Source: Cetorhinus maximus
Lineage: Eukaryota
DNA: 64,000 nt
NCBI RefSeq assembly: GCF_964194155.1
Contig: NC_135893.1
Span: 24,180,001-24,244,000 of the forward strand
Direction of reading: 5' to 3'
A program made the position numbers and the translations under genes. Each line of letters opens with the position of its first letter. The stretch's first letter is position 1. The notes under the pieces were generated by a model, which worked only from the letters and a program-made list of their open reading frames with translations, made no database searches and had not been told where the DNA came from. Below, piece by piece: positions 2,940 through 37,484 of this stretch.

Positions 2940-3300
2940 TGAAATAGAGCGTAAGTGAGACCGTTCCTCCCCCGTCAGTTGCAATGGAATAGTCCCCCGC
3001 ATACCGGAAGTTGTCCGGCTAGAGAAAGATTCCGGGTAAGTGAATGAACACAAAGCAAAATATTGAAGATGCTCTAAATCCGAAAGTAATCAGACAAAAA
3101 TATGGGATCACTCAGTGTGTTAAGCAGTATCCAAGCAAAAAAAAAACAATTGACATTTCAAGCCGTTGGCCCTTCCTTTAAGACCAGTAAGTGAGCTCAT
3201 CACTGGCGCAAGGGGGGAACTGTTATATTTCGCCGATGTTGTTATCCGGTGTGTTAAAGGGAGGGAGCTGTCGCTGATCGTTGCCGTTAGTGACCATGCG
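2940..3300. promoter_or_regulatory. CpG-containing promoter of UTP3, probably bidirectional
   Basis: CpG enrichment, ETS motif ccggaagt at 3004, X-box-like gttgcaatggaat at 2978, immediately upstream of the UTP3 ATG. Confidence 0.6.
3052..3188 (-). mobile_element. Old, degenerate Penelope-terminus copy inside the UTP3 promoter
   Basis: aaagcaaaatattgaagatgct...caattgacatttcaagccgttggcccttc is colinear with 13702-13838. Confidence 0.5.
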
Positions 3301-6300: not shown

Positions 6301-9300
6301 TAGGAAAGTTAATAGAATGTTATCAATTATCCCAAGGGGAATTAAACACGAGCATGGGGATTATGCTTCAGTTATACGGAGCGCTACATCAGGTGTACTG
6401 TGTACAGTATTGGTCACCTTATTTAAGGAAGGATGTAAATGCGTTGGAAGCAGTTCAGAGGAGGTTTACCAGACTAATACCTTGAGTGGGCGAGTTTTCT
6501 TATGAGGAAAAGTTGGACAGGCTAGGCTTGTATCCGCTGGAGTTTAGAAGAGTAAGAGGCAAATTGATTGAAACATATAAGATCCTATGGGGCCCTGACA
6601 GGGTGGATGTGGAGAGGATGCTTCCTTTTGTGGGAGAATCTAGAACTAGGGGTCACTGTTTAAAAATAAGGGCCACCCATTTAAAACTGAGATGAGGTAA
6701 AACTTTTTCTGAGGGTTTTGAGTCTTTGGAACTGTCTTCCTGAAAAGGCGGTGGAAGCAGAGTCTTTGAATATTTTTAAGGCAGAGGTGGATAGATTCTT
6801 GGTAAGCAAAGGGGGTGATTGAGGGTAGTTGGGATACAGATTTGACATTACTATCAGAACAACCGTGATCTTATTAAATTGTAGAGCAGGCTCGAGGGTC
6901 CGAATGGCCTACTCCTGATCCTTGTTCATATGTTCGTAAAACTAAGGAATTTAGTAAACAATCAGTAGGATATTGTCAGACTTCGAGGATATAGACTGAT
7001 GAACTGGACAAACACATGGAAGATAAAATTAAATGCAGAGAACTGTGCAGTGATACTTTTTGATAGGAATAACGAGAGGCCCTATAATCTAAATGATACA
7101 ATTTTAAAGGGGTTGCAGGAACCAGCAACCTGAGGGAATGTACACAAATCTTTGAAGGTGGCAGGACAAATTGTGAAAGCTGTTAAAGCATAAGGGGCCC
7201 TTGGTTTTATTAAAAGGCGTCGGGTCCAAAAAAGGAATTTATGCTAAGCCTTTTTAATAAAACACTGGTTATGAATGGATAGTTGGCAGTAGATTATTAA
7301 CTTGTCCATCTTAACAAAGGTGTATCTTTGGCAGTAGGGGACAAAAATACTCGCAAAACATAGAGCAGCCATTCTGCACTAGCAACATCCCACAAACTGC
7401 AGGAGGATAAATAACCAGTGATATTGACTGAAGAAGCAACGTTGTCTGGGATAACAACTTGCATTTATACAGTACTAATGTCATCCTTTATTAACAGAGC
7501 TACCCCACTACCTTTTCCTAGCTTCCTGTCATTCCAAAATGTCAAATACCCTTGAATATTCAGGCCCCAGCTTTGGTCACCTTTCAACCATCTCTTTATA
7601 ATGGCTATCAACTCTTATTTATTTCTGTCTGTGCTAATAATTTATCCATTTTGTTACAAATGCTGTGCACAGTTACAAAGCCTTTAACTTTGTCTTTTTA
7701 CCATTTTTGCAATCCCTGGCCTTATCTCCTGGTTGCACTCTTGAATTTATGTGTTCTGTCCCTTCCTGCCACACTTCATTATTATTACCCAATTCGTTGT
7801 TTTGTCACTTCCCTTTAATTCACCACATCATCTCTCACTTGATCCTTTCCCACCCCCCAATTATTTAATTTAAAGCCCTCTCCACCATCCTAGTTATACA
7901 CTTCGCCAAAATATTTAAACCTTGTTCAGGTGAAGACCATCCCAGCTTTCCCCAGTACTGGTGCCAGTGCCCCATGAATCGAAACCCATTTCTCCCACAC
8001 CAGTCTTTGAGCCATACATTCATCTATCTAATCTTATTTAGTCTACGCAATTCACTCGTGGCTCAGGTAATAATCCAGAGATTATTACCTTTGAGGTTCT
8101 GCTTTTTAATTTAGCCCCTAGCTGCTCATACTCCCTAAGCAGAACCTCTTTTCTAGTCATATCTATGTCATTCATACCCACATGGACCACAACAACTGGA
8201 TCCTCCCTCTCCCACTGCAAGTTTCTCTCCAGCCCCGAGCAGATGTCCTGAACCCTGGCACCGGGCAGGCAAAACAGCCTTATGGACTCTTGCTCTTGGC
8301 TACAGGGAAGTGAGCCCTGACTATATTATCCTCTACTACCACTACATTCCTATTTACTCCCCGCCACTTGAATGGTATCCTGCGCCACAGTGCCTTGGTC
8401 AGTTTGCTCATCCACCTTGCAAGGGCTGAGGCTCCTCCACTTCTACCTTCTCGACTCCCTTAACTGCCTCATGTGCAGTCATATCTTCCTGTCCCTGACC
8501 ACTGACCAAATCAGAAGACCCTATCCTAAGGGGTGTGACTACCTTCTGGAATAAAGTGGTCCAGGTAACTTCCCCCTCCCTGATGCATGTCCGAAGCTCA
8601 AACTGCAGCTTGTTAACTCTGAGCTGGTGTTTCTCAACCGATTGACGCTTACTACAGACATTCTTGCCATGGGTCACGTTGGTGTCCACAGCCTCTCACA
8701 TAATACAGCCATCTGCCTTGCCATCTTTATTATGTGTTAGTTTATTTTTTCTTATTTTATAATTAATAAGCGTAACTACTACTAATAAGCTTTACTACTG
8801 CTAGTAAACCTTGCTTTTACCAATAAAACCTTAAGGATTGCTAATAAATTACGCAAGTTTCAGAAGATAAATGAGAAAAATACCACCCAATCACTTACCT
8901 GTTTCAGTGTGATGTCGCCCATTGCTTTTTCTCAGAATTTGGCCACAGACTGGCATTCTCTCGCTCTTTTTAAAATGAAGTTTCACCGCACTCGGTGTTC
9001 GTTTTCAAAATGAAGCCTCTGCCACTCTCTGCGCTGTGTTTGCTTGAAAAACCAAGGAAACTGGGAGGACAAAAGATATCTTAAGAGACCTGAATCAGTT
9101 AAATAATTAAGAATATTCCTCAGGTGTGTGATTGCATAGTATGTATTGCTGGACTGGTATTTCAAATTATCAGCCACCTTTGAACTTGGCATGGTCAGTA
9201 CTGTGCTGCTAGCCAATTGGTTGCCACATTGAGGGTAGATAGGTGTTAACCTACCATACTTGCAGTTGTGACAATGAAGTGGAATGCGGGGCTGGAGCCA

Positions 9301-12300: not shown

Positions 12301-15300
12301 ACATGGTTTTTGTTTTGCAGGCCTCCCCAACGAGTTGGCCTGGGGCCAGAAGAAAGCAGCATATTACAATACAGACTATGTCGACGAGCTTCCACGTAAG
12401 TGTAGTAATTTTCCATCTTGAACCAGCTTCAACAAGGAGGGAAAGATTTCCCCCATGCATTGCACGTAATAGAATCGTAAACCTGTTCTTTACAGACAAA
12501 TTTTTGATTTTTGTCGCATGTACTGACAGCTTCTCCCCACTTTAAGAATTAAAAATAAGAAATATATAATAGATCAGTTATCACCAGAAAACGAAAATGG
12601 GTTCATGTTTTGGTTGGCAACCCCCTCATCAGAACTGACAATACTGAAGTCGCTGCTGTTCTCTGTGAGCTGAGCTATACTGGACCGTACTCATTCCGAT
12701 GTCCCGAGGCTGGTTTCTGCTCTTTTCTTGGAATGTGCCACGAGGTGGTTTGTAAGAGCACTGGTGAGAATGGAGTCAGACTCTGTATTGGTAATGTGTG
12801 TTGTGGAAAATTTCAACAAATGGGGACACATTCCCATATTCAGTAGCACAATGGATTTAATGCAGGTGTGCTCAGTTCTTCACATTCCCCTTGCATGTTT
12901 TAGTGCTACATTCTCTACCCTCTCATTCAGCCCATTATCCTCCTCTTACTTCTGGAGCTGTTAAGTTATTGTTCAGTAGGAATCCTGTACTTTCACATTC
13001 CCAGGAAGTTTCCATGTTGGGGCTGTGCTTTTTAAAAGATAGATGCTTGGACACTGGAATCTCAGTGAGACACTAGGCTGGTATTTTGGAAAGATGGAAT
13101 CAAGTGTGACAAAGGAGTTTCATCTGCAGCTGTCTAGTGCTGTGCATCTTAAATAAACTGCAATGAGAATCTGCTTTAGCACACTAGGCTGCAGCCACAA
13201 GTGTCCACTGTCATTCCTTACATCTCTGGCGATACTACATGTTGGATCTGATTTGCAGATTTTCTCACATCCAGCCCTTTGGAAGCAATAGATGTTGATC
13301 TTGGGGATGTCTGGATCAGTGAATGTTTATTTTTGCTTGAAGTCCCTCTTGTCTCTGGGTGACATTCGAGCAATGCATGACTTGTTTGCATTCTCCACTA
13401 GTGATCCTGGGAGCTGTGTGAAAGTAGCTGATTCCAAATACCTTTTTTATCATAGTGGCACAGCTGAAATGTGGTGCATTATATTGAGCTTTGCATCAAG
13501 GTAACCTCTCCCTTTTTACATGAGAACCTCAGCTGGAAAATGATAATCTTGCATTTTCCATTTTGTGCTTCACCATCCTGATGAATATTTACTAGTTAAA
13601 TCAGGGAGGTGTAGGAATTTATCATGGAAACTAGGAGCAGGCCCTTTGAGCCTGCTCCGCCATTCATTATGATCATGGCTGATCATCCAACTCAATATAG
13701 ATATAAAAACAAAAAACTGCGGATGCTGGAAATCCAAAACAAAAACAGAAATACCTGGAAAAACTCAGCAGGTCTGGCAGCATCGGCGGATAAGAACAAA
13801 GTTGACATTTCGAGTCCTCATGACCCTTCAACAGAACTAAGTAGAAATGGGAAAGGGGTGAAATATAAGCTGGTTTAGTGGGGGAGCGGAGAGAAGTGGG
13901 GGGGGTTGTTGGGACAAGCAAGCAGTGATAGGAGGAGATAACCAAAAGATGTCACAGACAAAAGAACAAAGAGGTGTTGAAGGTGGTGATATTATCTAAA
14001 AGAATGTGCTAATTAAGATTGGAGAGCAGGACGAGCAAGGTGGCTCTAGTGAGGATGGGGTGAAATAAACCATGGGTGGAATACATTTAAAAATAATGGA
14101 AATAGGTGGGAAAAGAAAAATCTATATAAATTATTGGAAAAAACAAAAGGGAGGGGGAAGAAACGGAAAGGGGGTGGGGATGGAGGAGGGAGTTCAAGAT
14201 CTAAAGTTGTTGAACTCAATATTCAGTCCGGAAGGCTGTAAAGTGCCTACCATGTCCGGCCCATCTCCTGTGCATCCGCCCTCACGCCTTCTCCTCCCTC
14301 CCAGAAACATGATAGGGTCCCCCTTGTCCTCACTTACCACCCCACCAGCCTCCGCATTCAAAGGATCATCCTCCGCCATTTCCGCCAACTCCAGCATGAT
14401 GCCACCACCAAACACATCTTCCCTTCACCCCCCCGGCGGCATTCCTTAGGGATCGTTCCCTTTGTGACACCCTGGTCCACTCCTCCATCACCCCCTACTC
14501 CTCAACCTCCACCTACGGCACCTCCCCATGCAAATGCAAAATATGCAACACCTGCCCCTTCACTTCCTCTCTCCTCACCGTCCAAGGACCCAAGCACTCC
14601 TTTCAAGTGAAGCAGCATTTCACTTGCATTTCCCCCAACTTAGTCTACTGCATTCGTTGCTCCCATTGCGGTTTCCTCTACATTGGAGAGACCAAACGCA
14701 GACTGGGTGACCGCTTTGCAGAACACCTTCGGTCTGTCCGCAAGCATGACCCAGACCTCCCTGTCGCTTGCCATTTTAACACTCCACCCTGCTCTCTTGC
14801 CCACATGTCTGTCCTTGGCTTGCTGCATTGTTCCAGTGAAGCTCAACGCAAACTGGAGGAACAGCACCTCATCTTCCGACTATGCACTTTACAGCCTTCC
14901 GGACTGAATATTGAGTTCAACAACTTTAGATCTTGAACTCCCTCCTCCATCCCCACCCCCTTTCCATTTCTTCCCCCTCCCTTTTGTTTTTTCCAATAAT
15001 TTATATAGATTTTTCTTTTCCCACCTATTTCCATTATTTTTAAATGTATTCCACCCATGGTTTATTTCACCCCATCCCCACTAGAGCTACCTTGCTCGTC
15101 CTGCTCTCCAATCTTAATTAGCACATTCTTTTAGATAATATCATCACCTTCAACACCTCTTTGTTCTTTTATCTGTGTCATCTTTTGGTTAACTCCTCCT
15201 ATTACTGCTTGCTTGTCCCAACAACCCCCCCTACTTCTCTACCCCACCCCCAACTTTAAACCAGCTTATATTTCACCCCTTTCCCATTTCTACTTAGTTC

Positions 15301-18300
15301 TGTTGAAGGGTCATGAGGACTCGAAACATCAACTTTGTTCTTCTCCGCCGATGCTGCCAGACCTGCTGAGTTTTTCCAGGTATTTCTGTTTTTGCTTTGT
15401 CATCCAACTTAATAGCCTGCTCCTGCTTTCTCCCCATACCATGATTAGATTCTCAGTATCTGGTTGTTTACACACTTTCAGGTGGTAAGGGTCAGGTGGA
15501 GGCACTGGCAGAAGCTGAGGAGGAGGAACAAGAGGCTTTGAATATTCAGAAACGTTTGGCTGAGAATCTCACGGAGGATGACTTTGGACTTGACCTTATT
15601 CAGGTAACCACCAGCTCAAGTTGAGGTGTGAAAGCGGTATTGGCACCAGATTCAGTGCGTAAAGTCAAGTTGCATTGAAGGAAAATTTTTGACTTAATTG
15701 AAGTAATGTTTGACAAATAGGCATCTCTGGTATGTTTCTTTACTAAGGTTTTATTAATTAAAAAGTGTTGATCCAGACTTCCTGCTTTCTGTCTTCCATG
15801 CTACTGGATTTAGGGCACACCTCCATTAGGACTCGACTTTCATCTGCCTTTGCAATGCTTGCTCAATATCAACTATGTTCCATGTCTTTGCACTGCATTG
15901 ACCCACATGGGCAGATGTGATTTGTTCTGGTGGAACTGATTTGTAGAAAATAATGGGGAAGTGGAATGCTTCCCTGAATTAATCTCTGCAACTGCCTGTA
16001 CTACCTGCCAAAAAGTCAGTAGAGGGAGAGGGGTGGGGAAAGAAGATAGCTCAGACTGTTATAATGTGAGATGTGTCATTCTCATATTCACAGAATGCTT
16101 TGCAATCCTCGTTCATTGTATTTAAAAGCTGTTTATGGGTTTATGCTCGGTAGCATTGTCATCAGGGTCTAAGTGTAAGACTGGCTACTGGGTGACCTCA
16201 TGAGCCAATATTTGCTCCCGTGTCCCTTTTCAGACAGTCATTGGTTTGGGTATCGGAGCAGTCCGGAATAATTTTTCCTTTTCCACCACCCCCTCCACAA
16301 TCTCCTGAAAGAAGTTGCGTGGTGTCTGTTTGGTGCATCTTATGCCCTATCTTGGTTATAATATTGAGGTCCCCATCATACTCCTATTCAATGGATTATT
16401 GAGCTCTAGTAACCCTTGGTCGTCTTTTCACCACCAGTCACATATAATGTGGGTTTTCTCCCCAACAATGCTGCACATTACCGAGGAGTGTCCCCTTTAC
16501 AGACTAAACGGCAGACTAATCACCTTAAACTCAGCAAATGATGCTATTGCTTGGCTTTGGGGGTTTGCATTCATTATATAAATAAATAATTTAATCCTCC
16601 CATTATTAATTATATTTTTAAGCTCTCTCTGAAAGTAAGGGATGCATCACACTTTGTCAAAGTGGTCCTAGGCAGCAAATAGCCACCCAGGGAGATGGAT
16701 GTGCAGGAGATTGGCTCATGTGTTTTAAATCCACACTGTGTCTGAAGCACAACCTTTATGTAGCAGCTAGATCAGTTCAGTATTGTCTTGCACCCTTTTC
16801 ACGGTATTTGAGTGCTGTTCCTAAATTTGAAGATTTGAGAAATCTAGTCTTAATCCATGTAAAATAAATAATAGTATTACAGCGCTACTTGAATTTTGCA
16901 CTGTAAACTCGTACTACTAAGAGCCAGATTACAATTTCACAAACTTGCCTCTCTGAGAGCCTTAAATAACTATCCAAAAGGGATCTTCAACCCTCCATTT
17001 TCTCAGCTGCACTTGTCTGTAAATCCCAGCAAAGCTCTATACCTCTGACTAGAGGAGACACCATCTCTATTATTAGTGCTGGATTTGTGATGCGAGTCCC
17101 CAAAAGGAAGGGCATTCATTCCTTAAATCTGAAGTTTTTTTTCCCCCCTCTCCCATCAACTTAATCGCTTTGGAGACTATAATTCTGCTCAGTGCCTGTT
17201 TTGTATAGGCAATCGACCATGATTCCTTTTCCTGATTACTATCCATGTCACAAGTTTTGTATGACTATCAGGTGAGAAGATATCCTGCCAACACGCATAC
17301 ACAACAAAATGAGCAATTGGGTGAGATATCTTGAGAGCTGCCAGCACTCCTGAGACTGTATTTCAAAGGAGGCAGAGTTTTCTGGAAGGGCCGAGGGGAA
17401 GATTTGATAATTTCAGGAGTTTTTACCCAGAGGGTGGTGACAGTCTGGAATGCACTGCCTGGGAGGGTGGTGGAGGCAGGTTGCCTCACATCCTTTAAAA
17501 AGTACCAGGATGAGCACTTGGCATGTCATAACATTCAAGGCTATGGGCCAAGTGCTGGTAAATGGGATTAGGTAGGTAGGTCAGGTGTTTCTCACATGTC
17601 GGTGCAGACTCGATGGGCCGAAGGGCCTCTTCTGCACTGTGATTCAGATTCTGAGTGTTCTTGTTGCAGGCATTTGCCCAGGAACAGGAGGCTGAGAGAG
17701 AGCCAGAAAATGATCTGAAAATCAAAAAGGATTTGAAGAAAATGTCCCACAAAGAGCAGATGAAACTGCTGAAGAAAGAGTCACCAGAGCTTCTGGAACT
17801 CATTCAGGACTTCAAAGCGAAGGTTAGCAAAACTTTTAAAGCCACTCTGCGTTTATTTATCTGTTTTAGTGTTTTTAGTGTTTTTGAGTCTGAGTTCAGA
17901 AGTAGGGATGTCTTACTGCAGTGAGACCCCACCTGGAGTATTGCATGCAGTTTTGGTCTTACTACCTAAGAAAGGATATACTTGCCATAGAGGGAGTGCA
18001 GCGAAGGTTCACAAGGCTGATACTGGGATGGCAGGACAGTTGTATGAGGAGAGATTGGTTCAACTGTGCCTGTATTCAATGGAGTTTAGAAGAATGAGAG
18101 GGGATCTGATTGAAACGTATAAAATTCTAACAGGGCTAGGCAGATTGGATGCAGGGAGGATGTTTCCCCTGGTTGGGGAGTCTAGAACCAGGGGCCACAG
18201 TCTCAGGTAATGGGGCAGGCCATTTAGGACTGAGATGAGCAAAAATTTCTTCACTCAGAGGGTGGTCATCCTGTGGAATTCTCCACCACAGGAGGCCGGG

Positions 18301-21300
18301 TCACTGAGTATATTCGAGAAAGAAATTGATAATTTTTTGCATATTAGGGGCATCAAGGGGTATGGAGAGAAAGTGGGAATATGGCGTTGAGATAGAGGAT
18401 CAGCCATGATATTGAATGGTGGAGCAGGCTCAAAAAAGGGCTGAATGGCCTACTCCTCCTAGTTTCTATGTTTCCGGATGTTGTTGTATATAGTTGAGTA
18501 ATAGTCAATCTCGTGTGTAAGGCAACCCCTGACTTTCGTCCAAAAAATCCTTAATTTTTCATTTATCTCACATAAGGCGACCCCAAGTTTTTGGCCAAAA
18601 ATACCTAATTCTTTCTACTTGCTGCAGCTCTCACTTTCCGCTTTCTCTCCTGAACCTGTGTTATGAACGAGAGCTCAGGAGGGGCAGTGAGAGGGAAGAA
18701 GTGAGCAAAAGGAGGTGCGAGCGGGAGAGCTGAGCAGGGAAGCAGCAAACGGCGAGAGTCAGGCAAAGGCGCAGCTTTGAGAGGTAGTCAGGCATGGCAT
18801 TGGGAGAGTGTGTTGGGCAGGAGAGAGATAGCCGGGTAGGGGCGTGGCATGGAGAGAGTGTGATTCGGGCAGGAGCACGGAGTGGAGAGAGAGAGAGAGT
18901 CGGGTGGGGGGGGGGTGGCGTGGAGAGGGATAGTCGGGCAGGGGCATGGCGTGGAAAGAGTGTGATTCGGGCAGGGGCACGGAGTGGAGAGAGAGAGTCA
19001 GGTGGGGGGAGTGGCGGCGTGGAGAGTGTCGGGCAGGGGCATGGCATGGCGTGGAGAGAGAGAGTAGGGCGGGGGCGTTGCAAAGGGAGAGTGAGGGGAG
19101 AGAGAGTCGGGCGGGGGCGTGGTGAAGGGAGAGTGAGTCTCGGGGAGAAGCTGCTTCAAAATGGTGGCTGTCATGTCACACACTCTCTGCCGTCCCTGGC
19201 GCAAAATGATTTCAACCTCTCAAATATTACTTGTATATATGTCGACTCCCTACTGTTTGCCTAAAAATTTGGTCTCAAAAACTCAACATTTACAAAAGTA
19301 TAGTAAAAAGGATTTAAAATTAAATAAATCTGAAGTACAGTGAAATTGGTTTTAAAGAAAATGCCAGAAGTTGTGGAGCAAAAAATTACTTCACTGAGTT
19401 TTTTATTTGTTCTTGGGATGGCAAGGCCAGCATTTATTGCCCATCTCTAATTGCCCTTTAGAAAGTGGTGGTGAGGTCCTCATTTGGTAAATAAGGGTAA
19501 GTTGATCATTGTTGGGAATGGGACTGTCCTTTTCTGGTAAGGATTTCCAGAGCACTTTGGCGTGTTGATGTGAATTCAGGCCAACTGTCTTTGATGCATT
19601 CCAATTCTTATCAATTCAATTTTCAGGAAAGCACAGATTTAGGGTCACATTTCAATCTATACACTTTTACAAACATCGACTTTCCAGAATAGTTTAAATT
19701 TTTTGAAAAAAAATTATATCCAAAATGCACCCCAGATAAGATGCAAACCTGGAGGTTGACTGTCTCTTTTCATCAGTTGCCACAATTCGGTATGCAGCCT
19801 CTGAAATGTGAAATTATGCTTCGGTAGTACAGTTGCCTGGATTTCTCTTCACCTTTGCAGGAAGATGTGTGACTTTTAACTATAGAAATCTTCCTCTTTT
19901 ATAAGCTGCTTAGGAAGACAAAGGTTGAACATTCCTGTCTTAGATGCTTGCTGCTTGTTAGGATTGTGGAGTGATTGTAAAACCATTGCTGATAAGTTCC
20001 TCTGAGAAGCAGTACATTTGTTTCTGATTTATCTCTTGCAGCTTGCAGAATTGAGGGATGAGCTGCATCCACTGATGGAGATGGTGCAGAGTGGGAAAAT
20101 ACCTGCAGGGAAGGTATGATGGGAACAAAATAACTATTTGTGGCAGGGTGGAGATTGAGAGTTCAGGCTGTCGGGAGTGTATTGTAATAATTGTTCTCTT
20201 TATTCACAGGGTGCCAACTATGTGCAGACCAAGTACCACCTGTATCTGAAGTAGGTTTCTTTGATAGTACCTTGGCGAGTCTGTAACCTTTCCAGAAAGT
20301 GATCAGCTGGGAGACTATGCAGAGGCTTTAAATGTAGGGCGTCCAGTCTGTTAGCCACTAGTCTCCATATGTGGCTAATTGCATTTTTCATTAGTAAATA
20401 ATAATGAATAATGGACAGACATGTATTCTCAATGCTCGTGTTCACAATGCCTGTGTCCTTTGACCTTTTGTGCGTTTGATGGGAAGGGGCAAAAGCAGAG
20501 TGTACAAGTTTTTTTAATTGTTTGTGCTTTACTTCCTTGGTTACTGCTCATTGGTTATCTGCTAAAATGTTATATGATATTGTTGAAAATGTTGGACTTT
20601 AGCACCACGGAAACGCCAGCAACATACTATAGAATAGGGAGCCTGTTATCGTGAAATAACCACCGAGGGAATATGGGTATTTCTTGTATTGTGCCTGAGA
20701 AATATATATTCCATATACTATACAGGGGTGGGATGTGCTGTACATCGAGAATAATTTACACTTCCAATGGGTCTCTGGGATGAGAGGATTGTCCTATGAT
20801 GAGAGGTTAAGTAAATTGGGTCTATATTTTCTGGAGTTTAAAAGAATGAGAGGTGATCTTATTGAAACACAAGGTCCTGAGCGGGCTTGACAGAGTAGAT
20901 GCAGAAAGAATGTTTTCCCCTCATAGAACTAGGGGAAAGTTTAAAAGTAAGGGGTCTGCCATTTAAGACTGAGATAAGGGGGAATTTCTTCTCTCAAAGG
21001 GTTTGTGAATCTTTGTAATTCTCTACACCAGGCGTTGTGGATAGTCCATCGTTGAATAGATTTAAGGCTGAGATTGACAGATTTTTGATGTCTCAAGGAA
21101 TCGAGAGATTATGGGGAGCAAACGAAAAAGTGGAATTGAATCAGCCATGATCATATTGAATGGTGAAGAAGGTTCAATGGGCCGAATGGTCTACCGCTGC
21201 TCTCTTTGTTTTAAATTCTTTTGTCTCACATCTCTAAAATTTTCCTCACTGCTTTTTGTTTAAACTTTCAAACATTGTTTATAATTTTCTTGTTCTCATC

Positions 21301-24300
21301 TATAGCTACTGTACAAACATTAGTTTTTACCTGATACTGAAGGCAAAGCGGATCCCAGTGCACAATCACCCAGTAATTGAGAGACTGCTCACCTACAGAA
21401 ATGTGAGTATTACCTGGTTTAACTGCACCAGGGTCTAGTTTTCCTTGCATCTTTCCCTACCCATGGTTAAGACCACAGGGACAGCCTGGGCTCATGTTTC
21501 TGTTTGTCATTCAAAATCTAGTTATTATGCAGCGAAAAAGATTAGCATAAGAATGCTTCCCTCTGATTTGTTTTATTCTTTCCTACATCCTCTCCCCCCA
21601 CCCACCCAAACCAGCTTCAAACTCATTGAAGTACATTAGTTCTGTTGAAGAGTCATATGGACTCGAAACGTTAACTGTATTCCTCTCTGCAGATGCTGTC
21701 AGACCTGCTGAGTTTTTCCAGGTATTTTTATTTTTGTTTTTGTTTTGGATTTCCAGCATCCGCAGTTTTTTGCTTTTATCATTGAAGTACATTATTCACT
21801 GGGCAGTAAAACCCCAGTGGTTTGGGATAGGTGGTTCCCAGCTTTAAAAAAATGCCTGAGTTTAAACACAACTTGTGCAGATTTCTCCTCTTTTCTTGCA
21901 AGTGACGAATGTGTTTTCTTCTTGCAGCTGATCAATGACTTGGTTGGAGTAGGTGAGAAGCTGTCACCTGAAATCCAACAGCTTTTGAACCCGGTTAGTC
22001 AAGAGCATGGATCAGTTGTGGAAAAAGATCAACTCGCCTCCGAGGTGAAGAAAGCCCAGAATCAATTGAGCAAACAAGCTAAAGCTGAACAAAGAGCAGA
22101 AGAAAAGGTGAGATGTAGGAGGCTTTCCTCAGGTTAGTAGGGACAGAATCCAGATTTCATAGGGTGAACTGATGTTGCTAGTTGTGTCAAGTATAAAAAG
22201 TGTGGACACATGACAGTGACGCTGAGCTATGTCAAGAGTTGTGATCACTATGTTCATACAAGCTTAATATTGAAGCTGAAATGTGAGTTTTATGGTGAGC
22301 TTTGATGGACTGAATCTGTTCCTTTCAGTTCTTCTTATTATACTTGGGTTGGATTTAATAATTAGAAACTTTAATTCAAAACTTTTCCCAGCTCATGTTA
22401 ATTATCCTTCAAGCCTATTTTTCACTTTCTCTTTTGCCCCAGGGAGTGAGTTACGCAAAAGTGTACAGTGTACAGACTCCATCCATGTTGACACCAGACA
22501 GTGGGGCACAAAACAACCCTTAACTGCACTACATCAAAGCAAGTCTAGTTAGGAAAATAACATGAAAGTAGAAGAGATTTGACTTGGATTTTGTTCAATG
22601 CTTTGGGGAGTTAGATGTTAATACGGGGATCCCTTTCTCTAATCGATGCTATGAATGGGTATATTTGGCTCACTTAGTACGATTTTCTGCCTTTCCACAC
22701 GTTAAGTTTACAGGACTAATGTTTTGATGCAGGTCACTGATCAGGAAGCCTCTAGGGACTCCAAGTCTGATGCGGATGAAGAAGCAGCATTCCAATATTA
22801 TAAGGAAATGGAGGAGAGGCTGACACAGAAGAGAAAGCGAGCTCAACTGAACAGGTGCTGATTATTTACATATGAGTATGCATGTATATTATTGTGTTTT
22901 TAAAACATGACCTAGATTGTGTCCCCTCTAATCAGGAGAATGGCTACCTTGTGTGCTCTGCACAGCATGTAAATTGATAATTTATTTAGTGGGGAGAGGC
23001 ATCATGCATTAATTCATATATATCTTAAAAAATTAGCTGCCTTGGGGGTGGGAAGATATGACATGGTGGAGGAGCAATGTAGTAATGTGCATGGGCACTC
23101 AGAATGGCTTTGACAAGCTACCATGTGGGATATTGGAGAATAGAGGATATGGGTTTACAGAAAGGGTAACAACTTAAATTAGAACAGAGGGAATTGAGTG
23201 AAGGAACTAAAGGCAGTTTCTCAAGGTGATTAGAAGTCAGTAACAGTGCCTCACAGCATTCTGTTCTAGTGGGAGTGGCATCCAAATTTGCATACAATAC
23301 TAAAATGGGTGGTATAGCAAGTAATTCTCAGGACCAAAGGGACCTTGATGAGATGAGGGAATGGTCAAAAAAGTGGGAGATGGAATTCAATGTCAGCAGA
23401 TGTGAAGTGGTACATGTTTTTTAAAAAAACAAGTAGTGAGGGAAATTATGGCTGATGTGGGTGAGCAGAGTAATTTGAGGGTTCATGTTCATAAGACATT
23501 AAAAGCAGCATAACAAAAACAGAAAAACTCAGCAGATCTGGCAGCATCAGCGGCGAAGAAAAGAGTTGACGTTACGAGTCCTCATGACCCTTCAGCAGAA
23601 CTGAAGCAGCATCTCAAGTGGAAAAGGCCATAATGAAAGCGAATGTAATATTGGATTTTATTGTGAGAGTTACAAGTTATTTAGTTTGTGTTGTAATGGT
23701 AAATTTATATAAAGCCATAGTAAGATCTCAATTGGAACAGTGTGTGCAATTTTGGGCTGTGCACTATAGAAGGATGTAGAGATAGTAGAGAGGGTACAGT
23801 ACAGATTTGCTGGGATTCTGCCTGGTATGAGGAAATCCAAATATGAAAAGATTTTGAAAAATTGGATTGTTTTTGCAAGAACAGAGGAGATGTAAGTGGT
23901 GATTTGATGCAGTTGTTTCAAATTATGAAGGGGTGGGAGAGAGTAGATAGAAACTGGTTTATATGATCGATGTCTGCTGGTTCTAAATCAGGGATCTGCA
24001 CCCTGCAGCTCTGGAACCACATGTGGCTCCTTAACATCTCATTTGCAGCTCCTAACCTTTTCCAGTTGTATCGCATTAATATGAAAAAGCCTAAAAAGAG
24101 AAAATTAAGTCAAGAAAAGTAAGAGTTGTGTTTTTATTTTTTGGAATTAGGAGCTAATCATTACGCTGCACTTCATGGTTTCAAATGATTCTTTAACAAA
24201 AAACATTGTGCTCTAAATAAACCAGTTTGAGTGGTCATAGGGGTTATAGATATGGTCTTTGCTTCAAGGAACAGGTTTTCTGATTGTGACCATTATAGCT

Positions 24301-27300
24301 GAGATGAATTATTCTGAATGTGCTATTAGAAACTTCTTTTTAACCATGAGAATCAATAGCCAAAGAACATGTCTTAATTTTACGCATCTTAAGTTAAAGT
24401 TTGTTTTAAAGATGACTGCTGACAAAATTATAGTTTAATAAAAGTTTTAAAAGCGATAATTCTACTTCAGTCTACTTTTGGTTTCTCTTTCTATTGACAC
24501 AAATACAGTGCATGTATTGAATTCATTACTTATTCAAATTATGCATTCCACCAGAGACACTTGACAATTTGCCAAGTATTTGGTTTAGAAACGTCGAATA
24601 TTCAACTTTGTGCCTCCCAATAGTTTTTATTGTAGGCAAATTTAGTTTAGAAAAGGCTCTTCAGGTGAAATGAGGCTGTCGACCCCTGTTCTAGACCCTT
24701 CAATGTAAGAGATTTCAGACTAGAAACAAGAGGAACTTTTTTTACACTCTGTGCAATGCAGAATCTCATAACTGAGTTTGTGATTGATGAAGACCATGTC
24801 AACATTTAAGAATAGGTGATAGATGGTTGAAGGAAAGGCAAATAAAGAGAGATGGCACTGGGGTGTACACATGACATTTATCTTACTATCGCAGAAGTAC
24901 TAAAGATCCAAATGAACTGGTTAGGCTGAATGGCCTACTTCCATTTTGTAATTCTTCTATAAGTCCCTGGTTTGATTATCTGGCAAGGATACATTAGGGA
25001 TACAACAACTGGATTTAGTGTCACTGGAGCAATGAGGAGACAAAAAAAAAATCAGCCACATCAGATAAAAGGCTTGAGAAACAAGAATGTAAATTGGTCA
25101 TGAATTTGCCATAACAGGGTTTAGTTCCCCTTCAAATGGAAGTTTCTGGCTTGTCGGTGTTTCTGGTCCTTGCCACTTTGCAGTGACCCCAGCTGGAATA
25201 TTTTTGAACGTGGGTTGAGGGGCAGGATTGGATTCAACTGTGGCCTCTTTCCACATCTCTATCAAATAATCTGCTGTGATTTTCTGCCTGGACTCAAACA
25301 TGAAGAAACAACTGTTTGGAAAAGCTACAGTAAATTCCAGAAGCAGCACCTTTTGGGGAATGGGGTGAAGAACCGGTAATTAATTTGGGAAATAATCTGG
25401 TCATGCTAGTTTCTTCTAATACTGACTTGACCCCAGATAGCTAAAATTTCCCCCGTCTCTTATTTCTTCCACTTCTCTGCATCTCTCCTTACCACCCACC
25501 CCCACCCCACAGCACCATTATTTATTTCTGTAAATGAAATGTTGATGTATTCAAATGCAGTAACATTGGATTTTGTATTTCAGCAATGAGGACAGTGCTG
25601 TGGTAAAGGAAGTGCTTGGTCCAGATGGAAAGAGAAAGATCACGTACCAGGTTTCTATCTTGATTCTAACATATCATAGTTTACTATTTATCTGCTTTAG
25701 AGCTGTGTTTTTAACCTTTTTTCTGGATACACCTGAAGCTATGGTGCTTTGAAAAACTCAAAATTTAACTTTTTTTTTCCCCCTGCTTTCTTGAGATCAT
25801 ATTGATGAGGATTTATTATTCAATTTAAAAAGAACATTTACAATCTTAAATCTCTATCAACCAAAAATGTAATTGGGCAGTCAGAACACAACTCAGTTTT
25901 TGCTGCTGTTTAGCATACTATGTTAGTGAGCAAATATCACTTCAGGGCTAATTTGTTTCCTCTTTGTTCCTTGTGGGAGGGAACCCCATTGTTTTACAAC
26001 TGCCCAGTTGGATGGGAGCTTCCCAAGTGGAGAATCCAAGATCACCACGAACAGATTAATATTTGCATGCAATTTAATAGGACTTTGATACAGAAAACTG
26101 TGGTACTGGATGGTATAAATGTACTGATCACATTCACATTTCGGGTCTTTATGTGCTGCTGTGTGGAAGATAAACTCTGAAACACATCTTAATCTTTAGT
26201 TGAGGAATATGCCCACTGAACTTTTCAATTCACAGTATTTGGTTACAAAGATTTTGTCAATCAAAATTGTCTCTGGATGCTTCTTAAACTCTGTACGATT
26301 CTCTACAGATCGCTAAGAATAAAGGTCTCACGCCCAGGAGGAAGAAGATTGATCGTAATCCCCGAGTGAAGCACCGAGAGAAATTCAGACGCGCTAAAAT
26401 ACGAAGGAAGGGCCAGGTAAGTGAAGGAGACTCTTGGTAGTTGAGTTATTGAGAATTATTTTTATTTAAATAATAAGGGTCATTAACACATTTCAAAAAC
26501 AATTTAAGTCTGGCTGTGGGAGTGTCTCAGCTGCTGCTTACCAACAGGAGAGGAGATGTTAGACATCCTTAAGCAAATAAGATCAGAACATAAGAAATAG
26601 GAGTAGACCATTCAGCCCCTCGAGCCTGCTTCACCATTCAGTAAGATCATGGCTCATCTTCTTGTGTTTTGATTTCCACATTGCCATCTAACCCCAATAA
26701 CCTTTGATTCCCTTGCCTAACAAGAATATATCTACCTCTGCCTTAAAAATATTCAATGACTCCGCTTCCATCACCACCTTCTGAGGCAAAGAGTTCCAAA
26801 ATCACAACCCTCGAGAAAAAATTTCTCCACATCTCTGCCTTAAAAGGGTGACTCCTAATTTTAAAACAGTGCCCCGTAGTTCTGGACTCGCCCACAAGAG
26901 GAAACATCCTTTCGACATCCACCTTGTCAAGGCCGTTCAGGATTTTGTACACTTCAATCAAATCACCCCTCACTCTTCTAAACTCCAAAAATGGCTCCCC
27001 TGGCCCTTGTAGAAATTTCCCTTGGAGATGGTAGATCAATGGGACAACTTAATTGATAAGGGCTCAATTCCAGTTAAGCTATGCAAAGAGGCACTAAAAA
27101 TTGAATTAATTATACTTGAGAAGGCTCAAAACAGATCTTACTTAAGCCGTACAAATTAAAAGATTAGTTATAGTCACTGACTATATGGACTGCAGCGGTT
27201 CAAAAAGGCAACTCACCACCCCTTTCTCAAGGGCAATTAGGGATGGGCAGTAAATGCTGGCCTAGCCAGTGACGCCCACATACCATGAATGAATATATAA

Positions 27301-31918: not shown

Positions 31919-34900
31919 CTTTTAAAAAACAAATCAGATTCTGACATTCAATGAACCTAAGAAAACAAAGCTTGCATTATACATACACTTGCAATTGTAA
32001 GACTTTCTCAAAGAACAGCCACTTCGTTTTTAAAATTCTCTATACTTTAAGAGGCAGTCCTCTTAATGGAAAATTGCACAAATGTAACCCTTTATGCAGA
32101 GGGCATGAGAGGACTCCTGCTAATGGTTAATCAAATAGTCCTCATAACATTAAGGATAGTTCATCTCTCACTCACCTGCAGAGGGCTAGCACCTGACTGG
32201 ATTTTGTGTTCTGGCATCTCAGAGGCAGGAATGAAAAAATCTGACACAGCTGCTGCGAGGTAGAACATGGCTTTTGGTCCTGGAGAATAAAAACAGTTAC
32301 AAATCACCTACTTTGTAATGCTATATCTTGTGGATACAAAAAGGTACTTTATGTAAGTTAATCAATAGATATTCTTGTCTATTGAGTAATCTGACTTAAA
32401 TTTTAATATAGAGCACAGCAGCATAGAAGCAATTCTTCATTTAACTGAATAAAGTAGAACCAATTATGTAACAGTTACAGGCATTTGTTCTCTGCTCACT
32501 CAGCATTGGTCTACCTAGCTAAATGTCAGGACTCCTGGCCTCTATTAACACCAAATACTGACCAAAATATAAATATATAATGTTTGTGGCTGGAATGAAG
32601 TGACTGTTCTAGTACAAGAACAAGCAGGGAATATTCCACAACACTTCTGACTTAGTCTTGTGGATAGTGGACAAACTTTAATGCAAATTTAATGCTACTG
32701 AGGCAAAATATATTTTCAGCTGTAATGAAAAACATATTAAAGTCAATCTCCTAGTTTATATTAGTGTACAGAACACAATACTCCATATGCAAATCTGAAT
32801 AGAACAAACAGCTTTCAACAAAATATCCTCTAATTTTGACCAGGCTGTATTTTTTCTGAAGTACCGTTATCGTCTGGTAAGTACCTCAAGACAATCCACC
32901 AGACTGAGTGCTACAATGTTGGAGGATGAGATGATAAACTGAGATGGATGCAAAAGATCCCATGTACTATTTCTAAGAAGAGCTGGTGAGGTATCCCCAG
33001 TGTCCTGGCCAATATTTATCCCTCAACTAATATTACTAAAAAAAAAAGACATCCTTGTCACATAGCTGTGTGGTGAAAGCAAGGCTGCCAATGATGGAGC
33101 AGTTAAAATAGGGGATACACAAAAGGCCAGAACTAGAGGAGTGTAGAGATTTCAGATAGTAGGGCTGGAGGAAGCTACAGAGATAGGAGGGGCAAGGGAG
33201 AAGAGAAATTTGAAAACGAGGATGGGCATTTTAAAATTAAGTAGTTCCTGGACTGGGAGCCAATGCATGTCAGCAAGCACAGGTGTAATAGGTGAACAAG
33301 ATTATGTAAGTTAGGTTCCAGGTAGTGGAGTTTTGAATAAGCTCAGGTTTAGAGAGTAGAATGCAGAGAAGTATTCATTTTGGTAGGAAGAACGAGGAAA
33401 GGCACCATAAAATAAAGGATATAATTTTAAATGGGTTGCAGAAGCAGTGATTCCTGGAGATGTACATAGGAACAGAGTAGGCCATTGAGCCTGCTCCACC
33501 ATTCAATGCCTTTTTCCCCACACTATCCCTTTGTCATTGGTATTTAGAAATCTGTCAATCTCTGCTTTAAACATACTCAATGACTGAGCTTCCACAAACC
33601 TTGGGTAGACAATTCCAAAGATTCACAACCCTCTGAGTAAAAAAAAATTCTCCTCATCTGGATCCTAAGTGGCTTCCGCTTTATTTTGAAATTGTGCCCC
33701 CTGGTTCTAGACTCCCCAAGCAGGGGAAACATCATCTTACCTGCATCTACCCTGTCTATCCCTTTAAATATTTTGTAGGTTTCAGTGGATCACCTCTCAT
33801 TCTTCGAAACTCTTGAACAAAGGCCCAGTTTCCCCAATCTCTCTTCATAGGACAGTCCCGCCATCCTGGGAACAAGTCTAGTGAACCTTCGTTGCACTCC
33901 CTCTGTGGGAATAGTATCCTTCCTAAGGTAAGGGAACCAAAACTGCACACAGTACTCCAGGTACTGTCTAACCAAAGTTCTATACAATTGAAGTAAGACT
34001 TTGCTACTCCTGTACTTAAATCCTCTTGTGATAAAGACTAACATACCATTAGCCTTCCTAATTGCTTCTGCACCTACATGTTAGCTTTCAGTGACTTATT
34101 GCACAAATTATTGAATGTGGCAGGGCAGGCTGAGAAAGCAGTTAAGGCATATGGGATTCTGGGCTTTATTAACAGAGACATAACAGTATAAAAGCAAGGA
34201 AGTTATGGTGAACTTTTCTTACTCAATTCGAGTACTGTGTCCAACTCTGGGCACCAACACTTTGGGAAGGATATGAAGGAATTAGAAAAAAGATTGATGA
34301 GAATGGTTCCAAAGATGAGGGATTTCAGTTATTTGGACAGATTGGAGAAGCTGAGGTTGTTCTCCTTGGAGGAGAAGGTTGAGAGAAGATTTGCTGGAGA
34401 TTGGGGGCCTCGACAAAGTAGAGGGGAAGAAACTGTTCCAATGGTTGAAGGATTGAGAACCGATTAAGGTGAATGGCAATAGGACAAAAAACATGAGGAA
34501 AAACTCCTTTGTATTCCAGATCCTAACCACTTGGCACACACTATGGTGGAGGCAGATTCAATCGTGGCTTTCAAAATAGAATTGGATAATTACCAGAAGA
34601 GAGAATTTTGCAGGGGACCGGGGCAAGTTATGTTGCTCTTTGGCACAGATATGACAGGCTGAATGGCCTTTGGTGCTGTAAACAGTTTATAGTTCTATGT
34701 GGTTGGAAGCTTGGCTCAAGGTCAAATACGACATCAATTAAACAATCTAGTTTGCCTCAGAATAGCCAAGAAGAGAGTCGGTGGCTAGGGAAGAAAGTTT
34801 GTGGTAAGGACAGAATACAATGGCTTTGGCCTTCCTGTTATTTACTTGGAAGAAATCTCTTACAAATTCAGTTCAAATATATAATACATATCTTACATTT

Positions 34901-37142
34901 AAATTTCACACACCCACCCTCTTAGTAATACAGTCATCTTTTATTCATTCTCAATATGTGGGTGTCACTGACAAGGTCAGCATTTATTGCCCATCCTTAA
35001 TTACCCTTGACCACCACCTTGAATAGAACTAAGTGGCTTGCTAGCCTATTTCAGAAAGCTGTTAAGTAACATTTGAGAGTCTAGAGTCACAGATCAGCCA
35101 GACAGGGTAAGGGATAGCAGATTACAACCTGCCGGACTTAATATTGAGTTCAACAACTTCAGATCATGAACTCTCTCCTCCATCCCCACCCCCTTTCCGA
35201 TCCCCCTTTTTCTAATTATTTATATTTTTAAAATATATTTTCTTTTCCCGCCTATTTCCATTATTTTTAAATGTATTCCCATCCATTGTTTCATCTCCAC
35301 CTTTTAGCTTATTTCGATCCCTTCCCTCCACCCCACCCCCACTAGGGCTATCTGTCACTTGCTCGTCCTGCTTTCTATCCTTAATGTCACCATTCGCACA
35401 TTTCTTAGCTAATATCACCACCGTCAACACCCCTTTGTCCTTTTGTCTATGACATCTTTGGCAATCTCTTCTTTGCCTCCACCTATCACTGGCCCTCTAT
35501 CCAGCTCTACCTGTCCCACCCCCCTCAACCAGCTTATATTTCACCTCATTTCTAATTTTCCTCAGTTCTGATGAAGTTATACAGACTCGAAACATTAATT
35601 GTATTCCTCTCCGCAGATGCTGTCAGACCTGGAGTTTTTCCAGCTATTTTTATTTTTGTTTCAGATTTCCAGCATCCGCAGTATTTTGCTTTTATCTAAG
35701 GATAGCAGATTTCCTTCCCTAAAGGACATTAGTGAACCAGGTGGGTTTTTTATAACAATCTGGCAGTTTTACAATCACCATTATATAAAATCTGGAAATC
35801 AGCAATCAATTGACTTTAAATTCCCCAACCACCCTGGTCTCCAAATCATTACTACAGATGAACATATTAAATAGGAGCTACAAAAGGCCATTTAGCCTTT
35901 TGAGCCTGTTCTGTCATTCCATAAGATCAATACTGATCTTCTACCTTAACTCCACCTTCCTGCGCTATCCCCATATTTTTTAATTCCCTTAGTATCCAAA
36001 GGTCTATTGACCTGTCTTGAAACTACTCAACCAGTAAGCATCCACAGCTCAGGTACAGCGAGTAAGCATCTACAGCTCTGAGGGTACAGAAGTCCAAAGA
36101 TTCACAACCCTCTGATTGAAATTTATTTTCATCTCAGTCCTAAATGGCCGTTCCATTAATCGGAGACTGTGACCCCACGATCTAGATTTTACAGCCGGGA
36201 GAAACATTTTCTCAGCATCTACCCTGTAAAGCCCCCCTTAAGAATTTTATATAGTTAATTGAACTTGGCTATTCTGAAGCAAATGGAGCCATTTCACGGA
36301 CTGTTGAGAGAGGAAGTCAATTTGTTACAGTGTGGTCGTAACATAAATACGAGCACTTTAGGTCTGGAAAAGTGCAGAGACGATACAAATATAATTTTAT
36401 ATAATATATATAAAATTATATAATTTTATAATCAATAGACTAGGCAAACACCTAACTCAGAAAACTGAATGGATCATCTCTGCTGACCTAACACAACCCC
36501 AAAGCGAGCTTCTAAAGGGCATATATTTACAGATTAACCACTGAAGTTTCATAAGCACCAGGTGGATAACCACTATGCTCCATACCCAAGTATTTACTTA
36601 ATTTCCCTACCGATGGGGTTGAGCGCCTGAGCCGCCGCCCTCAGCAGGTACAGATAGTCGGATAAGGTGCTGAACTCCACGGGGAGGAGCAGGCCGGCCT
36701 CTCGCACGGCCACATAGCGCTGCAGCACCGGCACGATGTTGGGCAGTACTGCCTGGTCGGCTTCCACCCGCCAGCAGGTGGTTCCGACGTCCAGCACGGC
36801 CTTCAGCGCGTCCAGCATGTTGAGGCCGGAGTAACGCCGGGAGAAGGGGTAGAGGGAGCGCTGACGGTGCAGGAAAACCACGGCGTAGCCCAGGCCGAGG
36901 AAATACTCGGCAGACACGGCGCCGCGCCAGCCGCTGCTGAAATTGTCCAAGAAGCGGACGGTCCGCGACTCCAGCGGTACCTTGGTGCCGCCCGAGGTCA
37001 CCAGCACCACCCTGCGGCCTTGGGCGGCGTGCCGCACCGCGAACTCGGCCATAGCCTTGGCCGAGCTCTCCGCATTAGGCGGCGGGACGCAGTTCGAGAA
37101 GAAGCCGCTCCACTCCGACTCGCACTCCGCCACCGCCGCCAT
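31589..37142 (-). CDS. PPCS: Phosphopantothenoylcysteine synthetase, 3 exons, about 321 aa
   Basis: Exons 37142-36611, 32279-32176, 31918-31589 (966 nt, phases 1 and 0). Motifs [64 protein letters not shown]. Confidence 0.97.
32176..32279 (-). CDS. PPCS: PPCS exon 2
   Basis: cag|[35 protein letters not shown]|gtgagt. Confidence 0.97.
33060..34690. mobile_element. LINE cluster: L2 (-, about 33060-33360), CR1 (-, about 33465-34100), CR1 (+, about 34100-34690)
   Basis: [17 protein letters not shown] (minus strand) and [14 protein letters not shown] (plus strand) CR1 motifs. Confidence 0.85.
35124..35696 (+). mobile_element. Penelope 3' fragment (end of GIY-YIG ORF plus pLTR) with TSD
   Basis: Starts at [14 protein letters not shown]; homologous to 14890-15399; TSD ggatagcagatt at 35112-35123 and 35700-35711. 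Confidence 0.9.
35564..35600 (+). ncRNA. Hammerhead motif with canonical CUGAUGA core; helix II damaged
   Basis: AGTT-CTGATGA-agttatacagactc-GAAA-CATT-AATT. Confidence 0.6.
35870..36255 (-). mobile_element. CR1 LINE 3' fragment
   Basis: ccaaagattcacaaccctctga...ctcagtcctaaatggcc. Confidence 0.8.
36611..37142 (-). CDS. PPCS: PPCS exon 1 (CpG island)
   Basis: [11 protein letters not shown]...[10 protein letters not shown]|gtaggg. Confidence 0.95.
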
Positions 37143-37484
37143 TACAACTGGTCCTCCCCTCAATGAGTGTCCGGGTTCCCCCCGCCCCCTCCCCCCCGCG
37201 CGACCTGCACCAAGAACTCTCATCGCTCACGATAGGAGATGAATAACTTTTCCAAGTTGTCGCACAAAGGACACTTTTTCATATTTAAATATTTCTATTT
37301 TTCTCTTATTCATTCATTTTTAGTTTCCATTTGTGTTTTAATCTGTTTGTTGGGGGAAGCACTACGAAGTGCTCCTGGGTTCAGAAGTCAGAGGCCTTAG
37401 CAACGGGCCAGAGGTCCCTAGCAACCGCAACATATCAGAGGCGGAGGGGTTTTCAAGCAAGGACTGGCCTCCCCGGACACCGAG
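37143..37484. promoter_or_regulatory. Bidirectional PPCS/ZMYND12 promoter with a GC box and two RFX X-box-like sites
   Basis: ATGs are 342 bp apart head-to-head; ccccgcccc near 37180; ggccttagcaac at 37393-37404 and gtccctagcaac at 37414-37425. Confidence 0.8.

Follow-up and report, generated by a model that had tools for sequence, protein, structure and literature searches.

Minimal hammerhead ribozymes are already known from the termini of Penelope-like elements (PLEs), where a vertebrate genome can hold thousands of them, most being solitary and truncated; Cervera and de la Pena (2014, PMC4209133) described them in Neptune elements of fishes and reported thousands of copies in coelacanth and Xenopus. 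Neptune is the PLE clade reported in vertebrates (bioRxiv 10.64898/2026.07.22.740005), and a CX2-5CxxC linker upstream of the GIY-YIG endonuclease is a mark of Neptune and Nematis PLEs (PMC8557442). PLE insertions may carry an optional tail of 30-40 bp and an inverted, 5'-truncated arm (PMC8557442), head-to-head arms have been described (PMC8557442, PMC3846280), and in a PLE of Anolis the tail was traced to two internal start sites of the reverse transcriptase (RT) (PMC11167929). No mention of sharks was found in the text and the one supplement searched of PMC4209133; the whale shark has been recorded as carrying Penelope (PMC8455134), and a 2026 preprint links hammerhead retrozymes to the pseudo-long terminal repeats (pLTRs) of PLEs (bioRxiv 10.64898/2026.07.22.740005). 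Here we describe a family of dispersed hammerhead-bearing copies in a stretch of 64,000 nt (the window) from Cetorhinus maximus (NC_135893.1, 24,180,001-24,244,000 of the forward strand; GCF_964194155.1). All copy counts and end positions refer to this one 64-kb window and its nine insertions, and copies are named by their approximate position in kb.

When the copy at 21.6k was used as BLASTN query, 10 non-self matches were obtained at E<=0.003, and a profile built from eight copies gave 13 segments with E<0.001. The profile segments covered all ten positions listed in an earlier, sequence-only reading of the window, whose estimate of about ten related copies was thereby substantiated. The ten amount to nine insertions, since 13702 and 15296 are two arms of one; together they occupy about 3380 bp, or 5.3% of the window. 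Three of the nine are long (13.7-15.4k, 35.1-35.7k and 63.7k to the window end), and four of the ten listed copies (13702, 15296, 35564 and 63749), which had been classed as mini-elements, proved instead to be tips of longer 5'-truncated copies. The copies have a common origin with an RT-thumb/endonuclease fragment, and they show target duplications, inverted arms, two 3' ends and clustered 5' ends. We favour, with a probability of about 0.55, the reading that they are pLTR fragments of a shark Neptune-clade PLE, inserted by the RT and GIY-YIG endonuclease of the parent and mostly dead on arrival, and that the short tips are run-off cDNAs.

The parent is represented by a 5'-truncated Neptune-type PLE on the plus strand (14250-15399), which comprises an RT thumb (14254-14433), a CX4CxxC linker (14529-14555), a GIY-YIG endonuclease ending at 14936 (Pfam E=1.5e-4, 22.4 bits against a cut-off of 22.6), a 3' untranslated region (UTR) and a tail-less hammerhead tip (15296-15399). 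The core RT is absent from the window. Its frame has one break near 14420, across which thumb and endonuclease are colinear with two shark RT-endonuclease (RT-EN) proteins, and in tblastn the frame was 56-68% identical to RT-EN proteins of whale shark and zebra shark. The presence of thumb, linker and endonuclease in one fragment with the same tip bears out the origin from a Penelope terminus and the Neptune-type PLE that had been proposed from the letters alone. From the linker type and the reported vertebrate range we infer that the parent is probably a Neptune rather than a Nematis element. The same insertion contains an inverted tail-bearing arm (13698-14249, minus strand; 96% identical over 519 bp), and the whole 1.7-kb unit (13698-15399) lies inside another repeat, flanked by a 15-bp duplication with one mismatch. 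After removal of this unit in silico, the sequence spanning the former junction aligned with a copy at 18359-18434 that has no interruption. Removal of the 35.1-35.7k copy restored a repeat that is also found uninterrupted elsewhere in the window, and two duplications were thus validated by empty-site reconstruction. The 13.7-15.4k unit sits in the 3' end of a long interspersed element (LINE) fragment.

The other two long insertions are 35124-35699 (plus strand), a 5'-truncated copy with 3' UTR, tip and tail, which has a 12-14 bp duplication and lies inside a repeat resembling a short interspersed element (SINE), and 63748-64000 (minus strand), a tail-less copy with 3' UTR that extends past the window end. 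Besides the 21.6k copy, the short insertions comprise a 92-bp tail-less tip at 23512-23603 (minus strand, exact 9-bp duplication), a decayed 143-bp tail-bearing tip at 3044-3186 (minus strand, exact 8-bp duplication, profile E=2.7e-7), a decayed 79-bp tail-less tip at 3963-4041 (minus strand, exact 11-bp duplication) and two head-to-head structures. One of these, 2049-2215, joins an inverted tail arm (minus strand) to a tail-less tip (plus strand) and has a 9-bp duplication with one mismatch; the other, 54910-55079, is a pair of tail-less tips flanked by an exact 9-bp duplication. A 30-bp micro-inversion (54940-54969), with a 4-bp inverted repeat at its bounds, lies inside the minus arm of the latter pair. 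A covariance model built from the ten window copies found its own ten training sequences and one new arm, 54966-55004 (E=0.0046); three further matches at E>=0.18 were treated as chance. A divergent hammerhead-like motif at 12597-12636 (minus strand; profile E=0.1) has the canonical CUGAUGA and a TCAGTT start, with AAAA for GAAA. It showed no clear tail homology and no convincing duplication, and it perhaps derives from another PLE family. Two prokaryotic loci that matched a 22-nt motif of the family were dismissed as chance, the likeness being limited to 26-34 bp around the motif.

End positions were measured relative to the 13.7k arm, with the A of helix I as +1. The 3' ends fall into two classes about 40 bp apart: four measured arms with the tail end at +135 to +143 (reference arm, +141), and six tail-less arms at +89 to +112, the value of +112 including some flank. 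Within the tail is one half of a stem, its 3' arm; the matching 5' arm directly follows the hammerhead. These classes match the 30-40 bp tail and the two RT start sites reported in PMC11167929. Inverted head-to-head arms were present in three of the nine insertions, and the duplications around the copies measured 8-16 bp, which supports insertion of the short copies by target-primed reverse transcription.

The 5' ends, unexpectedly, are clustered as well. In six of the nine insertions the copy starts between 0 and about +10 (23.5k at 0, that is 1 nt before helix I; 21.6k at +1/+2; 3.1k at about +3; 55.0k at about +3, within the hammerhead 5' core like its second arm, whose start at about +9 was judged by eye; 2.1k at +5 to +10; 4.0k at about +10), and the remaining three extend at least 148 bp upstream of +1. 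None of the nine insertions has a 5' end between -1 and -148, apart from a piece at 21.6k described below, or between +11 and +86. In simulations of exponential truncation (mean 50-400 nt, 200000 draws each) the probability of finding six of nine ends within 12 nt was at most 0.0043, and that of five of nine at most 0.035. Uniformly random truncation points, which the sequence-only reading had named as an outcome that would tell against it, were therefore not what was found. No insertion among the nine starts at the predicted ribozyme cut (+35/36), and hammerhead cleavage was rejected as the source of the short 5' ends, because these lie at 0 to +10 and not at +36. In four long arms +1 lies within TCAGTT or TTAGTT, which we take to fit the initiator consensus. 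The promoter of Penelope in D. virilis lies in the pLTR and is internal, with an initiator (Inr) and a downstream promoter element (DPE) (PMC2377424), and the promoter of an A. vaga PLE is likewise in the pLTR and Inr-like (PMC3846280).

The copy at 21.6k had been described as a discrete 140-bp unit with a perfect 16-bp target-site duplication. The duplication is exact: its left repeat occupies 21623-21638, the last base being the A of helix I, and its right repeat 21779-21794, both on the plus strand. End-flanking repeats of at least 10 bp were found in none of 3000 random 141-bp intervals, and only five exact repeats of at least 16 bp spaced 60-300 bp apart occur in the window, including this one; three of them lie in a minisatellite and one inside another copy of the family. 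Between hammerhead and right repeat stands the rest of the pLTR tip (21677-21778, plus strand), with stem arms at 21689-21698 and 21754-21763, its last 40 bp or so corresponding to the optional Penelope tail. The clean boundary implied by a discrete unit did not hold, for a 28-bp piece (up to 36 bp) of the parent 3' UTR is present upstream of the left repeat (21590-21617, plus strand), colinear with the long copies. Its spacing to helix I is 20 nt, against 28 in the long copies. The 10-mer at 21608 occurs four times in the window, the other three all in long copies, and the alignment score of the piece was equalled by six of 12156 control windows, all from the minisatellite at 18.8-19.1k. The piece could have arisen if the enzyme switched template from RNA to the target DNA and then returned, by later templated repair, or as an older remnant.

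A minimal type-I hammerhead layout is present in the same copy (21638-21676, plus strand), with a 4-bp helix I, the core CUGUUGA, an extra A, a 5-bp helix II and GAAA; as the sequence-only reading had pointed out, a palindromic ACGU without a loop takes the place of helix III. The cut is predicted after GUU at 21672. The full motif had also been ascribed to the other better-preserved copies, but it matched this copy alone. A canonical CTGANGA combined with GAAACGTH occurs in none of the copies. At position 6 of the core, three of the five young copies have U and two have C, the core of 23512-23603 being CUGCUGA with GUAA replacing GAAA; A6 is kept in the 35.6k and 55.0k copies, which have other defects, and ACGU is intact in three of the five young copies. 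Helices I and II were paired in 81.6% of 87 cells, against 10-47% in slid controls, a contrast inflated by the structure having been drawn from the same sequences. Covariation in these helices, which had been proposed as a check, did not exceed that of shuffled alignments: a two-sided change was seen in one of nine pairs, a number reached by 343 of 500 shuffles, and the covariation score was reached by 414 of 500, ten related and partly misaligned copies having little power in such a test. Comparison with Rfam, likewise proposed, returned no hammerhead family among four matches at E<=1 in the whole window or among three at E<=10 in 21600-21800; loopless minimal hammerheads may fall outside the Rfam models.

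For the 21.6k motif as a monomer, the lowest energy (-9.9 kcal/mol, z=-1.9) was predicted for a different hairpin, in which the core is paired. Two co-folded motifs gave a non-catalytic duplex, with -1.7 kcal/mol for the ACGU/ACGU duplex, which says little on activity. The A6C change is a natural hammerhead variant, much slower in Mg2+, and no data on A6U activity were found in the accounts that describe it (PMC3088659, PMC7151607). Minimal PLE motifs did not cleave as monomers and did so little as dimers (PMC4209133), and the Anolis PLE hammerhead requires the protein of the element (PMC11167929). Single copies in the window are therefore predicted, by analogy, to be inactive. Two plus-strand copies, 15.3k and 21.6k, are followed by host exons on the same strand, at distances of about 85 and 150 bp, respectively, a position that fits inactivity as monomers. 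A zebra-shark PLE model (P0002, residues 508-522) reads through the 3' end of the element into a peptide compatible with a hammerhead having the canonical A6, although this reading is a back-translation and ambiguous.

In the run-off reading that we favour, the PLE mRNA would carry the tip twice, in its 5' and in its 3' pLTR. As published for another PLE, the enzyme would nick the target and begin the cDNA internally on the RNA, using either of two start sites that border the tail. Were the 5' pLTR used in this way, at its tail site, the cDNA would run off the 5' end of the RNA after about 100 or 140 nt and, once joined to the target, would leave a short tip with a fixed start; this start would most likely correspond to the transcription start at the initiator-like TCAGTT/TTAGTT. 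A start at the 3' pLTR, or a jump to it, would yield the longer, randomly truncated copies. Because the copy ends miss its cut site, the hammerhead would be a passenger, requiring a partner copy and possibly a protein for cutting. Such a mechanism would explain, with no need for a separate element, why the starts are fixed, why there are two 3' classes and why short and long copies interleave. By pairwise identity the young short copies pair with different long copies, which was counted in its favour. In Anolis unprocessed RNA is the main substrate of the PLE enzyme, and the minimal template extends to +172 of the open reading frame (ORF), past the start sites at 111-118 (PMC11167929); inserted tips would accordingly lack part of the binding site and be poor templates.

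A more specific version of the run-off reading can be put forward tentatively. The tips would be abortive, 'strong-stop-like' cDNAs: the tail site of the 5' pLTR would be preferred, copying would proceed to the start of helix I, and a jump to the 3' pLTR would generate the longer copies. The 5' pLTR might be preferred as the only copy of the tip that is then followed by the RNA that the enzyme binds. If so, the short tips would preserve, across the genome, a fossil trace of the step with which Penelope replication begins, and the locus at 21.6k, with its tip, copied target DNA and upstream UTR, would be a frozen jump. Drift of position 6 to U or C in source elements would then imply that this lineage can do without cleavage or achieves it with the help of protein.

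Several points weigh against the run-off reading. The initiator-like hexamer is weak by itself (157 matches in 128000 positions), and four of its six bases belong to helix I. The sequence at +1, with a pyrimidine tract and an AG, can also be taken for a 3' splice site, and in D. virilis it is an intron, not a start site, that ends at helix I (PMC4209133). The open frame of the tip had no match in 156 related RT-EN proteins (best E=0.33); the idea that it encodes the start of the PLE protein was dropped, which weakens the case for the tip as the 5' end of a coding RNA. Clustered ends would likewise result if the polymerase stopped at the hammerhead. Four of the six short insertions are decayed, at 52-79% identity, and the boundaries of the two most decayed copies were set by 8- and 11-bp repeats, which at the slack used arose by chance at 23 of 1500 and 4 of 800 random sites, respectively. 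None of the seven branches in a tree of the ten copies was supported. As parent sequence is present upstream of +1, the 21.6k copy may itself be a truncation of about 190 bp that contains a templated insert. The argument from template length was taken from an element of the Poseidon type and not from a Neptune element. Finally, the exponential null is simple, and there are only nine insertions in one window.

One rival is ordinary 5' truncation from the 3' pLTR, in which the RT tends to fall off, or the cDNA is trimmed and joined, at the 5' side of the hammerhead, without any role for a transcription start. PLEs are normally subject to heavy 5' truncation (PMC8557442), and most of the minimal hammerheads reported from genomes stand singly and probably derive from truncated PLEs (PMC4209133). 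The 1-3 nt of microhomology at the junctions of the 21.6k and 23.5k copies is consistent with such trimming and joining, and, as the UTR piece at 21.6k shows, the enzyme did have template beyond +1 on the upstream side. However, a polymerase moving 3' to 5' along the template should stall on entering the hairpin (about +39), not past it, and the gaps in the 5' ends on both sides of the cluster also weigh against this explanation. We regard it as rather unlikely.

The near-uniform 5' start and the target duplications would also be expected of an independent non-autonomous, SINE-like ribozyme element, a tip of 100 or 140 bp that has its own internal promoter, is transcribed at its scattered loci and is remobilized in trans by the Neptune enzyme, close to what the sequence-only reading had envisaged. 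Internal initiation by the RT would make a terminator unnecessary, the D. virilis promoter is internal (PMC2377424), and the pLTRs of A. vaga are capable of acting in trans. In addition, a database search with the tip frame gave a horn-shark RNF14 isoform model as its sole match (P0278, residues 1-36; 80% over 30 residues); the model starts in a related tip, which hints at transcription starting there and indicates that the family is common to several sharks. Pairwise identities among the copies point the other way: the two young short copies, 21.6k and 23.5k, are 77% alike, whereas 21.6k is 91% identical to the long 35.6k copy, its nearest relative, and 23.5k is 84% identical to the long 63.7k copy, although the tree supports no grouping of any kind. 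Short copies resemble the long ones in that some have a tail and others lack it, and in forming inverted pairs. All 13 B-box-like matches in the window fall outside the copies, tRNA gene calling found no tRNA gene in the window, and by analogy with Anolis the tips would lack the RNA downstream of the start sites. A retrozyme-like or SINE-like family independent of the parent, as earlier proposed, is thus unlikely, given the lack of tandem arrays and B-boxes, the upstream UTR, the closeness of the short copies to different long ones, the U or C at position 6 in the young copies and a covariation no higher than in shuffles. Far less probable still, in our view, are monomers of a non-LTR retrozyme whose tandem repeats elsewhere would give circular RNAs that are reverse-transcribed and scattered. 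Retrozymes and PLEs do occur together in the one chondrichthyan sampled, dispersed monomers are known in Xenopus (bioRxiv 10.64898/2026.07.22.740005), and helix II is partially repeated at the 2.1k junction. But none of the eight tandem-repeat rows in the window overlaps a hammerhead copy, the copy ends lie off the cut site and are not circularly permuted, and the cores are non-canonical and minimal, whereas the retrozymes described have canonical type-I hammerheads in tandem (PMC7229834).

The host is a shark, as judged from the identity of its PPCS exon to those of Mustelus (93%), Rhincodon (90%), Hypanus (86%) and Callorhinchus (77%). Host-gene sequence also occupies 36594-37151 and 42784-43251: the first exon of PPCS lies on the minus strand, and the frame at 42784, which had no Pfam match, presumably resembles ZMYND12. 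On the plus strand an exon of SAS10/UTP3 was identified at 15484-15603 (E=0.0017). The plus-strand exon nearest to the 21.6k copy (21928-22107) gave no significant match in a structure search (best E=0.66); it probably belongs to the same gene, taken as UTP3/SAS10 from the match of the 15484 exon. Pfam matched nothing in 18 plus-strand frames.

Other repeats are frequent in the window. A second dispersed repeat, probably a tRNA-derived SINE, is found at 63378-63658, 47980-48248, 27212-27293 and 19419-19475 and in the flanks of 35124-35699, with a B-box-like motif at 63429 and 48189; the 35.1k PLE copy is inserted in one copy of this B-box-bearing repeat. LINE fragments, which we take to be CR1-like, lie at 5658-6916 (with RVT_1 at 5658-6071), 17921-18457, 20775-21194, 26586-26991, 33548-34067 and 54023-54657, among others. 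Decayed frames resembling an LTR retrotransposon occupy 48315-51294 (minus strand), with a weak Arc C-lobe (gag-like) match at 50617-51294 (E=0.0054). An exact 15-bp direct repeat, 159 bp apart, at 62983-63156 is possibly the duplication of an unrelated short insertion. The purine-rich minisatellite (18820-19137) has periods of 31-33, 42 and 102, and a short 17-bp tandem repeat lies at 421-461.

The shark family is an expected extension of known biology, and the fixed 5' start is the part that could matter. If the tips mark the start of the RNA, counts of such ends in any shark genome would test a strand-transfer model of how Penelope elements build their pLTRs and tandems. Counts of hammerheads or 'retrozyme monomers' in such genomes may consist mostly of inactive by-products. 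The density of about nine insertions in 64 kb leaves room for a very abundant family, although one window gives no copy number. No description of this shark PLE family was found in literature searches, outside whose scope lay most subscription papers, Repbase and Dfam; among the matches listed in searches on pLTR strong-stop or template jump and on non-autonomous Penelope, none reported a 5' peak at the hammerhead.

Among the closest systems described so far are the non-LTR retrozymes (PMC7229834; bioRxiv 10.64898/2026.07.22.740005). The copies share with these the lack of coding capacity, the type-I hammerhead, the relation to pLTRs and the occurrence in a chondrichthyan, but retrozymes are defined by tandem hammerhead units and circular RNA, whereas the window copies are non-tandem and have PLE insertion ends. 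In Poseidon of Anolis (PAc; Frangieh et al. 2024, PMC11167929) there are similarly two alternative 3' ends close to a stem-loop, with the hammerhead some 100-140 nt further upstream, and insertion ends are unrelated to the ribozyme cut; PAc belongs to another clade, and its ORF starts inside the hammerhead, while the frame of the shark tip matched no RT-EN protein among those compared. The minimal hammerheads of metazoan PLEs (PMC4209133) resemble the present motif in being type I with a 4-bp helix I, an extra nucleotide before helix II, a G-C at the base of helix II, a palindromic 15.2-16.2 and no loop III, and in being mostly single and dispersed; the window copies differ in their 5-bp helix II and in the U or C at position 6 of the five young copies. 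Neptune PLEs and their pLTRs (PMC8557442, PMC3846280) differ in that no mention of 5' ends clustering tightly where the hammerhead begins was found in those accounts, and agree with the shark copies in the RT thumb, the CX2-5CxxC linker, the C-terminal GIY-YIG domain, the 5' truncation, the head-to-head inverted arm, the optional 30-40 bp tail at one end and the duplications of 8-16 bp.

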